Notes under the pieces: generated by a model
The model's input: only the letters and a program-made list of their open reading frames with translations
Told to the model about the DNA's origin: nothing
The model's database searches: none
NCBI GenBank assembly: GCA_042217555.1
Contig: JBDGSL010000033.1
Span: forward strand, 865-64,864
DNA length: 64,000 bases
Reading direction: 5' to 3'
DNA from: Candidatus Nanohalobium sp.
GTDB lineage: Archaea; Nanohalarchaeota; Nanosalinia; Nanosalinales; Nanosalinaceae
Translations under genes and position numbers: made by a program
Part shown: positions 2,318 to 60,800 of the stretch, one piece after another
Position numbering within the stretch: position 1 is the first letter of the stretch
Layout of the letters: every line of letters starts with the position of its first letter

Positions 2318-5103
2318 CAGAATTTTCTCCCAATGATGAACAACTGGAACTGATCGAAAGCATCGACGGAATCTACAAGGTGGATGCAGGAGCAGGAACA
2401 GGCAAGACCTTCACGATAACAAGAAGATACGCTCACATACTGGAACAGGCAGACGTTGAGCCAGAAGATATTCTGCTTCTAACATTTACCAATAATGCTG
2501 CGGAGGAGATGAAGGAGCGGATCATCAACCACTGCAGCTACGACATGAAAAACCTGCGTGGCGAAGATCAGAATCTTCTTGGAGCAGACACCTACCGGAG
2601 TCTGCGTGAAGCACCAATATCTACATTCCACAGCTTGGCCAAAAAAATAATTACGGAAAACGGATTTGAAGCGCCAATATACCTAGGGATCGACGACCAC
2701 GTAACAAGCTCAACAAGACTAATTGAAAACGAAGTCCTGGAAAAACAGGAGTTCCGAAAGTTCATAAACAACTTCATAGAGGAAAACCCACAGTACAACA
2801 ACCTCTACAGAATTCTCTACGACTACAGCGAACTTCTCAGCCTGATTAAATCTCTCGCAGCAAAAGGTATAGTTCCAACTGAGGAAGGCTGGTACCGGAA
2901 CTCAGAAAGATACCTGGATGGAGACTTCGAAGAGTTCCAGGAACTTTTTGAGGAGATGAACGAACCAGGACAAGGATCTAGAGGCCCTACACAATCGGAT
3001 TTCCTGAAGAAAGCCGGAGGAATTTTCAGGAATAAGTGTCTGCCAGGGGACGCACCAGGTTATGGAGATGTAAAGGCTTCAAAACAGATTAAACCGGAGT
3101 ACGGCGAGAAGGCTTTCCAAGAGAATCGGGAAGAGCTGAAGCAGTTCATACATGACATCTACTTCGAATACCTCGAGTACTGTCTCTCCCACAACTATCT
3201 GAACTTCAACTTCCTACTAGTGTTTGCCTATGCTCTACTCTGTGAAGACGACGAACTACGTGAAGAACTCAGCTTCAAGTACTCGATGATCGACGAGTTC
3301 CAGGACACTAATGAAATTCAGTTCAAGGTTGCAATGCTTCTATCAGAAGGTAATATGGCGGTAGTCGGTGACTGGAAACAATCTATTTACAGCTTCCAAT
3401 ACGCCAATGTCGACAATATACGAGAGTTCAAAGAAAGGCTTCAAAAGTACAAAGAGGAGCTCAACCAGGATCAGAACAGGATAAGCTATGCTGTAGACGA
3501 TGCGGAAAGAATAGACTTGAAGCAGAACTACAGGTCTACACAGGAAATACTTGGCTTCTCTGAAGATAGCTTAACACTGCCTGGAAAAGACGGCGAAGAC
3601 GTAGAGGAGAAAGATATTGTTTCTCTAGAAACCAATAAGGAAGGACACAATACCTCGATAAGTAAGCTGAAGTCGGAAAATGAGTTAGAAGCAATACTTC
3701 ACAAGATTCAAGAAGTAGTCGAAAATCTGAATTATAGCTTGGAGGAAGAAGATCGGCCGCCCAGGTACGAGGATATTGCTATTTTAACCCGTACCAGGAA
3801 CTTTGGTCTGGAACTACAGGAAAAGGCCGAGGAGTACGGTATTCCGATTGCATATGAAGGTGGAGTAGAACTCTTCAAGACGAGGCCGGCTATTCTGCTT
3901 CTGGCGTGGCTCCGAGTACTCAACTACAGAAACTCAAGCAAAGGTTGGGCGGTAATACTAGAAGAGGCAGACTACAACTTGGCAGAAGTCGAACACATAC
4001 TCGAAAAAGGCGAGTACCCGGACGAGATGCTAGAGTTCAGATCAAAGCTTGAACAATTAGACGATGTATCAGCTATAGCCAGAAAAGTATTCTCCAGATA
4101 CGGAATCGAAAACGGTTTCTCCGACAAGGTTACACAGGTCCTTCAAGACACGTTTGATTCCAGTTACAAGAACCGGGGGGACCTGATCAGGTTCATAGAA
4201 GAAAGCATTGAAGAAGGAGAAACCTACGAAGTAGACGACTCCAAACCAGAAGCAGTAACAGTACAGACCATCCACTCAGCCAAAGGACTGGAATACCCAA
4301 TAGTATTTGTCTCAGACATAAACCAGAGACACTTCCCTTCCAACCAAGGAAGTAACTCAAGAATCATCTACGAAGATCCGGTAGGGCTGAGACAGAAGAA
4401 GATTTACTCTGAGGAAAACAGTTATCTCTATGATAACTGGAAAGCCAGTCTGGTTTCAAAGGTACTTACCGGAGACTACGATGAAGAGCGCCGACTCATG
4501 TATGTGGCGATGACAAGAGCTGAACAACATCTCTTCTTCACAGCAGAAACCGATAACGAAAGCCTATTCTTCGAACATCTAAATCTAGAGGCGGAGGAAA
4601 TAAGTCCTGAACTAGAAAAGACAGAATTTCACAGTGAGAAGGGAAAAAAGCTAGAGTTAGATAAACCAGAGGATAAAGCTCCGGTGAAGCGTTCAGTGCA
4701 CGCAGTAATGGAACTAGATGAAACTGCCAGAGGCAGAGGACCAGAATTCGGAACCAAAGTGCATGAGTTTGCAGAGAAGTATGCTAAAGGAGAAAAAGTC
4801 GAGCCAAGCAATGAAGACGAGGAAAACGTTGCCGAATACATCGACTCCTTGGAAGGAGACTTACGCCCTGAGATCCCGATCAAAGTTCCGACCGAAGAAG
4901 ACGGCAGAAAGGTAGTCTATCACGGAGTCATCGATCTTCTGCATATCACAGATAACGAAGTAGAGATAATCGACTGGAAGACAGACTTGTCAAAAGTAAA
5001 CCATGATGAATATGAGAAGCAGCTTGAAATATATGAAGAAGGAATTAAGAAGGTATTTGATCAGGAAGTTCAGAAAGAGATATTATATACAGAAGATCTT
5101 TAG
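2314..5103 (+). CDS. UvrD/AddA-like SF1 helicase with C-terminal PD-(D/E)XK nuclease (island copy)
   Basis: AGAGTGKT, DEFQD, VGDWKQSIY, NYRS, TIHSAKGLEYP, EERRLMYVAMTRA; C-terminal GTKVHE..GVIDLL..IDWKT. Probable start ATG 2314 overlaps the HEPN stop (ATGA). Confidence 0.9.
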   Translation: MTEFSPNDEQLELIESIDGIYKVDAGAGTGKTFTITRRYAHILEQADVEPEDILLLTFTNNAAEEMKERIINHCSYDMKNLRGEDQNLLGADTYRSLREAPISTFHSLAKKIITENGFEAPIYLGIDDHVTSSTRLIENEVLEKQEFRKFINNFIEENPQYNNLYRILYDYSELLSLIKSLAAKGIVPTEEGWYRNSERYLDGDFEEFQELFEEMNEPGQGSRGPTQSDFLKKAGGIFRNKCLPGDAPGYGDVKASKQIKPEYGEKAFQENREELKQFIHDIYFEYLEYCLSHNYLNFNFLLVFAYALLCEDDELREELSFKYSMIDEFQDTNEIQFKVAMLLSEGNMAVVGDWKQSIYSFQYANVDNIREFKERLQKYKEELNQDQNRISYAVDDAERIDLKQNYRSTQEILGFSEDSLTLPGKDGEDVEEKDIVSLETNKEGHNTSISKLKSENELEAILHKIQEVVENLNYSLEEEDRPPRYEDIAILTRTRNFGLELQEKAEEYGIPIAYEGGVELFKTRPAILLLAWLRVLNYRNSSKGWAVILEEADYNLAEVEHILEKGEYPDEMLEFRSKLEQLDDVSAIARKVFSRYGIENGFSDKVTQVLQDTFDSSYKNRGDLIRFIEESIEEGETYEVDDSKPEAVTVQTIHSAKGLEYPIVFVSDINQRHFPSNQGSNSRIIYEDPVGLRQKKIYSEENSYLYDNWKASLVSKVLTGDYDEERRLMYVAMTRAEQHLFFTAETDNESLFFEHLNLEAEEISPELEKTEFHSEKGKKLELDKPEDKAPVKRSVHAVMELDETARGRGPEFGTKVHEFAEKYAKGEKVEPSNEDEENVAEYIDSLEGDLRPEIPIKVPTEEDGRKVVYHGVIDLLHITDNEVEIIDWKTDLSKVNHDEYEKQLEIYEEGIKKVFDQEVQKEILYTEDL
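2554..2608. repeat. 48-bp in-frame double-hairpin insertion flanked by a 7-bp direct repeat
   Basis: CTGCGTG at 2554-2560 and 2602-2608; internal GAAGAT-CAGA-ATCTTC and GCAGAC-N10-GTCTGC; absent from the paralog at 31377. Confidence 0.75.
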
Positions 5104-5186: not shown

Positions 5187-5289
5187 TGGTACCACAAGTA
5201 ATCGACTCCAAGCTTGTAAAAATTCTCAGTTTTTCATTGCCTACGTAAGGATTGTAAAAACAAGATCAAAATCTCAATATAGATAAATT

Positions 5290-5694
5290 GTGGAAAAAGT
5301 ATACGTAGACACCAACATCTTCCTTGACGCACTCAAGGACAGGACCAGCAGAAACGGCAGAGATCTAGGCACTCCTGCAATGAGCGTATTTTCTCAGGCA
5401 AAACACGGCAGATTCAAGATCATAGTCTCAGACTGGACTCTCCAAGAACTAGGTAAACATATAGAAACAGAAAAAGTCAAGGAGCTTTTTTCCGATATTG
5501 GAGAAGAACAGATTATTCGCTGCAGCTACAGCGAAGAACAGAAAAAGAAGGCAAAAGACTCCTCAAATCACTGGGAGGATTATTTACACGGTTTAGTAGC
5601 TGATGAAGAAGATGCGGACTGTATAGTAACTCGTAATGTTGATGACTTTAGAATTCTCTCAGGAGTCAAGGCCAAACTCCCTGGACAACTCTGA
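5290..5694 (+). CDS. PIN-domain (VapC-like) ribonuclease
   Basis: VYVDTNIFLD...QEL...EDYLH..IVTRNVDDF acidic tetrad. Confidence 0.85.
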   Translation: MEKVYVDTNIFLDALKDRTSRNGRDLGTPAMSVFSQAKHGRFKIIVSDWTLQELGKHIETEKVKELFSDIGEEQIIRCSYSEEQKKKAKDSSNHWEDYLHGLVADEEDADCIVTRNVDDFRILSGVKAKLPGQL

Positions 5695-36954: not shown

Positions 36955-38490
36955 ATGTCACAGGAACTTGGAATAACGGTAAAGAAGGACCGCGATCCTT
37001 CAGAGTGGTACACACAGGTAGTTAAAAAAGCAGAACTGGCGAAATACGCCGACGTCAAGGGCTGCATGATAATCAAACCGTACGGAATGAAACTCTGGGA
37101 ATCAATAAAAGAGAACTTCAACGAGAAAATAGAAAGTACCGGAGTTGAAAACGCATACTTCCCACTCTTCATCCGCGAAAGCCAGCTGGAGAAGGAAGAA
37201 GACATCGTAGAAGGATTCGACCCGGAAGTCGCATGGGTAACACACGGAGGAAGCGACGAACTCGAAGAAAAAATCGCAGTAAGGCCTACATCAGAAAGCG
37301 TTATCGCACCATACATGGCAGACGAAATAAGAAGTCACAGGGACCTGCCTTTCAGAGTGAACCAGTGGGCAAACGTCGTACGCTGGGAAGCAACAGATAC
37401 AAGGCCTTTCCTGAGGACGAGAGAGTTCCTCTGGCAGGAAGGACATACAGCACACGCATCCGAGGAAGAAGCAGATGAGGAAACAATGCTGAGACTGGAA
37501 CAGTACAGACAGGTAATCGAAGACCATCTCGCTATCCCTTCAATCCTGGGATACAAGCCGGAGCACGACAAGTTCCCCGGAGCAAAATACACTACAACGA
37601 TCGAAACCTTGATGCCGGACGGGAAAAGCATCCAGTCAGGGACCTCACACCAGCTAGGACAGCACTTTGCCGAGGCCTTCGACATAACCTTTGAGGATGA
37701 GAACAGCGATGAGCAAACAGCGTGGACCACTTCATGGGGCCTCTCCACGAGGACGATCGGTGCCTTGATCATGGCACACGGTGACGATGAAGGCCTTAGA
37801 TTGCCTCCTTCCATTGCTCCGGTACAAACGGTCGTCGTACCTATCTACCAGGAAGACAACCAGGAAGAAGTCATGGAGTACGCAGAAAAAGTAGCCGAAG
37901 AACTGAAGAACGCAGATTGCTCCTGTGAAGAATCTGCTTGCAGCAGCAGTTCGGAGAAATGCTGCGAAAAAGGCCTTCGCGTAGAACTGGACGACAGAGA
38001 TCACAGAACACCGGGATACAAGTTCAACGAATGGGAACTCAAAGGCGTCCCACTCAGAGTCGAAGTAGGACCTAACGAAGTAGAAGACGACGCAGTCACC
38101 ACAGTAAGAAGAGACAACGGCAAGAAAGAAATGGGCAAGGACAGAGAAGAATTCCTAGAAAACGCAGAACAGGTCCTCGACGACATCCAGGAATCAATGT
38201 ATCAGGAACTGGAAGAATACCAGCAGGAGAACATCAGAGAAGCAGACTCCAAAAACGAAATCCTCGCAACAATCGGCAAAAACCGCGGCTACGTAAAAAC
38301 CCGCTGGTGCGGAAAAGAAGAATGCGAAGAAGAGATCAAAGACGAAGTATCCGCAGAAATCGTCGTCCTACCATTCCAGGAAGACAGCAAACCAGCCACC
38401 ATCCAGGACGAAGAAGAACACATCGACGGCAACTGCGCAATCTGCGGCGAGGATGCGGAACGCTGGGCATACTTCGCCAAGAATTATTGA
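36955..38490 (+). CDS. proS: prolyl-tRNA synthetase (archaeal/eukaryotic type) with a 19-aa insertion
   Basis: RPTSE, FLRTREFLWQEGHT, QSGTSHQLG, TSWGLSTR, C-terminal Zn module. Confidence 0.97.
   Translation: MSQELGITVKKDRDPSEWYTQVVKKAELAKYADVKGCMIIKPYGMKLWESIKENFNEKIESTGVENAYFPLFIRESQLEKEEDIVEGFDPEVAWVTHGGSDELEEKIAVRPTSESVIAPYMADEIRSHRDLPFRVNQWANVVRWEATDTRPFLRTREFLWQEGHTAHASEEEADEETMLRLEQYRQVIEDHLAIPSILGYKPEHDKFPGAKYTTTIETLMPDGKSIQSGTSHQLGQHFAEAFDITFEDENSDEQTAWTTSWGLSTRTIGALIMAHGDDEGLRLPPSIAPVQTVVVPIYQEDNQEEVMEYAEKVAEELKNADCSCEESACSSSSEKCCEKGLRVELDDRDHRTPGYKFNEWELKGVPLRVEVGPNEVEDDAVTTVRRDNGKKEMGKDREEFLENAEQVLDDIQESMYQELEEYQQENIREADSKNEILATIGKNRGYVKTRWCGKEECEEEIKDEVSAEIVVLPFQEDSKPATIQDEEEHIDGNCAICGEDAERWAYFAKNY
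37909..37966. repeat. 57-bp in-frame double-hairpin insertion in proS
   Basis: GCAGATT-N12-AATCTGC and GCAGCA-N11-TGCTGC; ends CGCAG...CTGCG; encodes NADCSCEESACSSSSEKCC. Confidence 0.7.
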
Positions 38491-60482: not shown

Positions 60483-60800
60483 CGCCGGCGCCCGGATTAC
60501 TGAACGAACTGCCAGACGAAGCAGTTCACAGTTCTAAAAAAGAAACCTGAAAGCCATGACTTTTGCATGGCTTCTTGCGTGTGTTGAAGACCGGATGGTC
60601 TTCTGCTCAAGAAGATCAGTTGCCTGATCTTCGGGAACTCAGCGTCGAAGACTTCGTCGGAAGTCTTCTCGAAGCAGATCCGGAGATCTGCGGTAACGAG
60701 TTCGCCGGCGCCCGGATTTGAACCCGAAGCTCGCCGCACCGGGAGGTTCTCACATCAAATCCAAGCTTAGGCGTGAAACGCCGGCGCCCGGATTTGAACC
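60483..60800. repeat. three copies of the tRNA-Ser 3' end bracketing a six-hairpin cassette
   Basis: CGCCGGCGCCCGGATTTGAACC at 60779-60800 and 60703-60724; 16 bp of it at 60483-60498. Confidence 0.88.

Follow-up and report, generated by a model that had tools for sequence, protein, structure and literature searches.

A small double-hairpin element, probably mobile, inserted in frame in the prolyl-tRNA synthetase gene of a nanohaloarchaeon

The prolyl-tRNA synthetase (ProRS) gene of Candidatus Nanohalobium sp. contains 19 additional codons that are probably a copy of a small, non-autonomous mobile element of the Nanohaloarchaeota, integrated in frame and tolerated by its host. The gene lies in a stretch of 64,000 nt that was analysed as a whole (the window), and positions are those of the window unless another contig is named. 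The insert is discrete, copies of it occur in other genes, sites without it are known, its hairpins are conserved, and a target-like motif lies upstream of it.

The ProRS gene (36955..38490, + strand) encodes 511 residues of the archaeal/eukaryote-like type. Pfam assigned a class II core (tRNA-synt_2b), an anticodon-binding domain (HGTP_anticodon), and a ProRS C-terminal domain (ProRS-C_1). The best solved relative was the ProRS of T. thermophilus, 1H4Q (E = 1.6e-135). The HGTP anticodon-binding domain has 110 residues on 87 profile positions. The net insertion of 57 nt (37909..37965, +) reads AAC GCA GAT TGC TCC TGT GAA GAA TCT GCT TGC AGC AGC AGT TCG GAG AAA TGC TGC and encodes the peptide NADCSCEESACSSSSEKCC. 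In the empty alleles P0003, P0005, L006, and L007, ...GAACTGGAR is followed directly by GARAAAGGC... For comparison, 30 relatives from whole genomes and 120 database homologues were aligned. No insertion was present at this point in 98 of the 120 nanohaloarchaeal homologues, which read ...EELE-EKG-LRVELDD..., and the alignment to 1H4Q contained a 19-residue gap exactly at this point. A preliminary description had reported a Cys-rich insertion of 19 residues at 37909-37966; the alignment bears this out except for the last position, 37966, which is the G that completes CTGCG. Among the 120 homologues, the 19 residues recur, with four substitutions, in one other ProRS, P0002, which is present in two independent assemblies.

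An AlphaFold2 model of the protein, based on a 67-sequence alignment, was confident overall (mean pLDDT of 84.8). Residues 323-338 had pLDDT values below 50 and lay between a confident helix, 300-323, and a strand, 343-345. The model thus indicates that the insert would be a flexible loop joining two regular structure elements. Two more partial ProRS genes in the source assembly (C62:5-751 and C34:2-613 of G000) are 82-83% identical to the window gene and lack the insertion. These extra genes indicate a second related population in the assembly, whose contamination estimate is 2.9%.

The conserved core of the insert is 54 nt long (37912..37965, +; GCAGATT...TGCTGC) and is common to contigs L031 and L036/L037 and genomes G009, G005, and G049. 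In the window, it scored 88.3 bits with covariance model R1. Hairpin 1 (37912..37937, +), recognized as an inverted repeat and in the fold, has an outer stem, GCAGATT/AATCTGC (37912-18 / 37931-37), an inner stem, CTCC/GAAG, and the loop TGT; the inner stem contains one mismatch in the window copy and reads GGAG in other copies. An unpaired linker, TTGCA (37938..37942, +), is the most variable part among copies, its codon specifying Cys, His, or Asp. Hairpin 2 (37943..37965, +) pairs GCAGCA with TGCTGC and TTC with GAA within the inverted repeat GCAGCAGTTC/GAAATGCTGC (37943-52 / 37956-65), and its inner pair shows a compensatory change from U-A to C-G in three copies.

Taken alone, the window sequence gave a modest hairpin signal. 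As DNA, the insert folded at -13.8 kcal/mol (z = -2.69), an equal fold occurring in 3 of 200 shuffles; as RNA with its flanks, its fold was not significant (z = -1.2). The hairpins are convincing because copies can be compared: over six copies, 96.7% of the cells of the two-hairpin structure were paired. Changes in the stems amounted to one two-sided compensatory pair and one pair in which C became U, giving G-U. Variation affected 8 of 40 paired columns versus 9 of 14 unpaired ones (p = 0.0056). In pairs of copies from the same gene (ProRS and DnaK pooled), differences were found at 2 of 80 paired and 7 of 28 unpaired positions (p = 0.001). The termini CGCAG...CTGCG were present in all close copies, and the terminal inverted repeat stretched to 7 bp (GWCGCAG/CTGCGAC) in several distant ones. 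Consensus folding yielded two closed hairpins and no conserved pairing in the flanks, and Rfam contained no family matching the element. Both the two hairpins and the CGCAG..CTGCG ends had been proposed in the preliminary description and held up. One contrary outcome that it named was an ancient insertion conserved as protein without its hairpins; the opposite was observed.

A blastn-short search of the source genome with the insert revealed no second copy (best match 14 nt, E = 0.25), so copies were sought in other genomes. Scanning a metagenome collection with a hairpin-1 pattern returned contigs L036 and L037, which are 99.7% identical to each other. Their 54-nt core differs from the window copy at four positions and from the P0002 copy at two (93-96% identity), and it lies in the gene for a 466-residue pyridine-nucleotide-disulphide oxidoreductase (Pyr_redox_2). 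The orthologue in the source genome (C73, 58% identical) is element-free and reads ...GKTEQELEDG-YISATYNY. A BLAST search of 70 genomes of the class located a copy in the heavy-metal P-type ATPase gene of G009, between ...VKVSELEA and EGDKVLVRPGD, with 45 of 54 nt identical (83%, 8-9 differences). Model R1, built from four copies and run on the same 70 genomes, identified more diverged copies in Hsp70/DnaK of G005 and G049, which represent two genera (62.6 and 60.4 bits). The DnaK of the source genome (C50) has an empty site, between EVDLEGDDY and TPQQ. In G058, R1 also detected the element in a GH15-family protein. Some 20 other matches reached E <= 1e-4; they were spread over 13 of the 70 genomes, and several of them were intergenic or directly behind the 3' end of a tRNA. 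Empty sites are known for ProRS, the oxidoreductase, DnaK, and glutamyl-tRNA synthetase (GluRS), in orthologues from the source genome or its relatives. The close subfamily is represented by only one copy per genome, fewer than an actively spreading element would usually have; distant family members number roughly ten per genome.

Several further candidates came up in these searches. Exact-pattern scans of genome contigs (both hairpins) and of viral contigs gave no matches. Short BLAST matches in G023, in G018, and at a second site in G009 were rejected, as they lacked hairpin context and looked like chance. Long open reading frames across several distant R1 matches were of basic, Cys/Arg-rich composition and are probably not genes. 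In the TARA contig L031, a weak match to the two-hairpin model (4753-4813; 17.8 bits, E = 0.028) is intergenic, just 5' of the insert-bearing ProRS. L035 (SXGQ01870288.1) is a virus-like contig with a split family-B-type DNA polymerase (PHROGs). A hairpin-1-like stretch at 5253-5303 of this contig (ADCDCVESAD; R1, 29 bits) lies in an open reading frame of 342 residues without known function. It matches only the hairpin-1 search pattern, and because it was found with that pattern, its likeness is partly by construction.

The near-identical 54-nt copies in unrelated genes of related genomes support the earlier suggestion of a selfish palindrome tolerated in frame. At 93-96% nucleotide identity, convergent codon choice is excluded in practice as their source. 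The same copies refute the view that slippage of GCA/AGC/TGC codons expanded the loop in one lineage in the ordinary way and that the hairpins are incidental. The run GCAGCAGCAG could indeed slip, and the fold of the single sequence reached only z = -2.69. Nevertheless, the same 54 nt recur in unrelated genes at 83-96% identity, and filled and empty alleles are discrete, leaving this explanation a negligible probability.

Neither orientation nor reading frame varies among the close in-gene copies. Upstream of the window copy, GAACTGAAGAAC (37900..37911, +) fits GAR-CTK-RAR-NNC, a motif present 5' of every close in-gene copy, where the directly adjoining flank is GAACTGAAGAAC, GAATTGAGGAAC, GAACTTGAAGAC, GAGCTGGAAGCC, or GAGCTTGAAGRC. 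The form CTK-GAR-NNC precedes four independent insertions. Directly 3' of the copies stands GAA, except in the DnaK copies, which have GGG. Empty sites of ProRS and the oxidoreductase already contain GAR-CTK-GAR, and the empty DnaK site contains GAT-CTT-GAA; the motif therefore belongs to the target, not to the element. It is missing upstream of the distant non-coding copies. Comparison of empty and filled sites gave net gains of 57, 57, and 66 nt with no clear direct repeat that would mark a target-site duplication, the boundaries being ambiguous by about 3 nt.

More distant relatives occur within the source genome. A GluRS fragment (C44:1-492, - strand; locus L088) contains an insertion of 18 residues or 54 nt, DEDSAGESSGQSFSEKIP, that is absent from G001, G007, and G027. 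This copy retains an intact hairpin 1, whose stem is 9 bp long; its hairpin 2 has eroded, and it encodes no cysteines. Its local alignment score to the element was 32, compared with a null of 12 +/- 2.4, and it is a decayed copy of the ProRS element. The preliminary description had likened the ProRS insert to an in-frame two-hairpin insertion in AddA (2554..2608, +). The likeness is real and also partial: R1 scored the AddA insertion at 18.5 bits (E = 0.018), the local alignment score was 26, and the two share a core, AGAATCT(G/T)CTTG(C/G)AGCAG, whose score was reached in only 9 of 23,246 control windows. The AddA insertion is a more distant member of the family, and the decayed in-frame GluRS and AddA copies show a recurrent habit of insertion.

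A non-coding family member lies within the window in a hairpin cassette behind a tRNA-Ser gene (60644..60694, - strand; R1, 26.5 bits, E = 2e-4). Elsewhere in the source genome, a 135-nt unit occurs at C15:27491-27625 and C83:15941-16075, with 97% identity between the two loci. It consists of a tRNA-like T-arm/acceptor tail (...GTTCGAATCCAGCGTCCCGCA) and two family hairpins, and is of the tRNA-tail cassette type. Perfect hairpins with 7-bp stems and loops of 3-16 nt numbered 1699 in this genome versus 936 in a shuffled control. The commonest stems were GAAA(A/C)TC/GA(T/G)TTTC, in up to 28 copies.

The copies have diverged far less than the genes that contain them. The window ProRS gene and that of P0002 share 79% of their nucleotides and 56% of third positions, versus 91% identity within the insert, where 18 of 19 third positions are alike (p = 2e-4). 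Between the DnaK genes of G005 and G049, identity is 76.9% overall and 48.9% at third positions; for their elements, it is 92.6% and 83%, respectively (p = 0.003). Each of the three closest copies is two or three changes from their consensus, a star-like pattern that includes one copy in a different gene. In a ProRS tree computed with the insert masked, each insert-bearing gene paired with an insert-free gene (SH-aLRT of 81 and 92), and the gene tree thus weakly separates the two insert-bearing genes. We do not claim an independent insertion in ProRS, because an AU test did not reject a sister relation of the two (p = 0.12). They also share a derived junction (R/K-N, with an extra AAC). Given this junction and the AU result, the two ProRS copies may be one old insertion with stems maintained by selection, an outcome not predicted for a dead copy that is purely selfish. 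The low divergence of the element may reflect recent site-specific re-insertion or exchange, or else selection on the stems in place.

Selection in situ is central to an explanation in which the double hairpin is useful to the host or handled at the level of RNA, as an mRNA segment that is excised or bypassed or as a regulatory or processing signal. In the ProRS and DnaK pairs, the conservation of stems exceeds that of loops about tenfold, with third positions of the host genes near saturation. Moreover, the one stem change from C to U gives G-U, which is neutral in RNA, and some R1 matches stand directly behind tRNA tails. However, the ends of the element contain no bulge-helix-bulge (BHB) motif, the flanks have no conserved pairing, Rfam provided no match, and codons matching as take-off and landing sites are absent. 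Net lengths are always multiples of three and stop-free, as needed for translation and not for excision or bypass, and even the decayed GluRS and AddA copies are still in frame. On balance, we regard such a host or RNA-level role as unlikely. A combined reading is similarly doubtful: a 54-nt double-hairpin family would home to CTK-GAR-NNC, its stems would be under purifying selection even in essential genes, and the cell might recognize and process the transcript segment, perhaps through the machinery that handles the hairpins of tRNA introns and tRNA tails. If its stems proved to be selected and processed, tRNA-intron mobility, tRNA-end cassettes, and in-frame insertions would be joined in one RNA- or ssDNA-based mechanism, undescribed in archaea.

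Excision as a BHB-type mRNA intron by the tRNA splicing endonuclease, which the preliminary description had suggested checking, is scarcely credible. Removing 57 nt does restore the usual protein. Nevertheless, no bulge-helix-bulge brackets the element: searching up to 8 nt from both ends, we found no pair of 3-nt bulges separated by a 4-bp helix in the window copy, L036, or G009. P0002 yielded one candidate, whose 50-nt excision would not preserve the frame; such candidates also occurred in 21 of 88 control windows. The two closed hairpins of the consensus fold likewise speak against such an intron.

In its protein form, the insert could be a selected module, a Cys-rich metal- or redox-active loop passed between genes, and the preliminary description had considered such a function for the five cysteines. 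Close copies do encode four or five cysteines, arranged in CxC and CC motifs; the Cys, His, or Asp specified by the variable linker codon could each bind a metal; and other nanohaloarchaeal ProRS lineages have GCxC or CxCxxCxC at the same loop. The six aligned copies, however, encode 5, 4, 4, 4, 1, and 1 cysteines, the single ones being those in DnaK, and the GluRS copy encodes 0. Variation tracks base pairing and not codon position, the loop is predicted to be disordered, and the hosts (ProRS, oxidoreductase, ATPase, DnaK, GluRS, and AddA) have no common function. At the DNA level, the other insertions at this ProRS loop do not consistently resemble the element: of five, L003 scored above all of its control windows and four did not. 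A metal- or redox-active module is thus very improbable. Because the cysteines are not conserved across copies, we attribute the Cys-richness to the TGC/GCA/AGC stems being read in frame.

The cysteine-bearing insertions of the other ProRS lineages are of two kinds. HSAGC[GAS]CQEN (GCxC), which adds 7 residues, occurs in 14 of the 120 nanohaloarchaeal homologues, and NSxxCGCENC[SE]CGSD (CxCxxCxC), which adds 11-12, occurs in 6 of the 120. The set comprised loci L002-L005 and L011 and proteins P0006-P0087. These insertions are patchily distributed across the tree, and in all five whose DNA was read the first two cysteines are encoded TGC-NNN-TGT. When they were examined as possible relics of the element, four of the five showed no DNA similarity to it above the gene background; for L003, similarity was above all of its control windows. 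Model R1 matched none of these insertions. Such insertions may represent a small metal site, or they may be relics of great age.

Under the favoured reading, that of a mobile element, the unit would be the 54-nt core with its two adjacent GCAG...CTGC hairpins and CGCAG/CTGCG termini. Its point of entry would have been a GAA-CTG-GAR site that was already present where a helix of the ProRS anticodon-binding domain ends. Site-preferring integration of the hairpin-forming element by a putative enzyme is the mode that we favour. The insert is divisible by three in length and, like every gene copy, in frame and free of stops, so transcription and translation of the gene most likely run through it. 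The predicted junction peptide would be ...ELKNADCSCEESACSSSSEK, and the product would gain a flexible Ser/Cys/Glu-rich loop that the enzyme presumably tolerates without consequence.

As to what might mobilize the element, a search for the Y1 transposase family (IS200/IS605, PF01797) found no mobilizing enzyme. Y1 genes were present in 4 of the 70 genomes of the class and were not found in G009, which is 98% complete and a single contig, or in G005, G049, and G058. The only Y1 transposase of the source genome belongs to an IS605-like unit at C11:15334-16640 (locus L087 1468-2808), in which a TnpA of 132 residues is followed by a TnpB-like open reading frame with a masked run of N. Hairpins just upstream of this unit (GAAACTCC...GGAGTTTC and GGAAATC...GATTTCC) have stems of the types that dominate the hairpin excess of the genome, and they differ from the ProRS element. 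A Y1 transposase as mobilizer, or an origin of the element as an IS200/IS605 derivative, was rejected: the family is too rare in the class, and the C11 hairpins are of another type.

The element resembles known systems to different degrees. It is like miniature inverted-repeat elements (MITEs) in being small, having no gene of its own, bearing terminal inverted repeats, and occupying several loci (PMC10969869). One sequence is indeed found at unrelated loci, namely ProRS, Pyr_redox, the P-type ATPase, and DnaK, with decayed forms in GluRS and AddA. A cognate transposase sharing the ends of the element was found neither in the Y1 unit on C11 nor with PF01797 across the 70 genomes. Unlike typical MITEs, the element is among the very smallest in size and has no evident target-site duplication, and no parent transposon was found. 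REP/REPIN elements with RAYT transposases and the palindrome-associated elements derived from IS200/IS605 are hairpin-based and include hairpin doublets. IS200/IS605 chemistry would explain the short fixed adjoining sequence, the fixed orientation, and the lack of target duplication. REPs differ in being extragenic, and, in contrast to REP/REPIN-RAYT systems, no RAYT/Y1 gene was found in the genomes with the best copies, such genes being confined to 4 of 70.

Mitochondrial genes of fungi contain double-hairpin elements and GC-cluster or byp-type inserts, which are ~30-80 nt long, consist of one or two hairpins, and invade small genomes in both coding and non-coding regions. Ribosomes skip byp elements, for which matching take-off and landing codons are required. 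Those inserts are organellar, and such codons are not seen at the nanohaloarchaeal element. PARCEL (palindromic amphipathic repeat coding elements) is a palindromic repeat coding sequence, reported to have spread horizontally across a diversity of microbes, both bacterial and eukaryotic (PMC2996958). According to the abstract, it concerns intragenic tandem repeats of surface proteins and not single insertions in housekeeping enzymes (PMC2996958). The element also lacks the two 3-nt bulges and 4-bp helix that mark the boundaries of archaeal BHB introns and the conserved ligand residues of metal-binding Cys loops.

A full-text literature search returned no description of such elements in the Nanohaloarchaeota, its coverage being incomplete and absence not proven. 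That selfish palindromic DNA can lie in frame in housekeeping genes is a curiosity for which Rickettsia is the textbook case. If the DPANN archaea have a counterpart of far smaller size, protein remodelling of this kind would be shown to arise independently in reduced symbiont genomes. The defined sequence and candidate target motif offer a handle for seeking the mobilizing activity, and natural pairs of filled and empty alleles are a means of testing how essential enzymes tolerate insertions. For annotation, the element serves as a warning that Cys-rich 'motifs' in nanohaloarchaeal proteomes can be by-products of hairpin DNA.

Rickettsia palindromic elements (RPEs) are short palindromic repeats found in frame in unrelated housekeeping genes of a symbiont with a reduced genome, where they are read through as an extra peptide at sites that the protein can tolerate (PMC10969869). 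The nanohaloarchaeal element has the same habit of in-frame integration into conserved protein genes, with an extra peptide as the predicted result. RPEs are bacterial, about 100-150 bp long, and present in tens of copies per genome (PMC10969869), whereas the present element has a 54-nt core, is found in DPANN archaea at low copy number, and follows an upstream target-like motif. It is thus an analogue of RPEs and not a member of their sequence families, no sequence relationship being expected. By this analogy, the element may be regarded as an archaeal counterpart of the Rickettsia palindromic elements.
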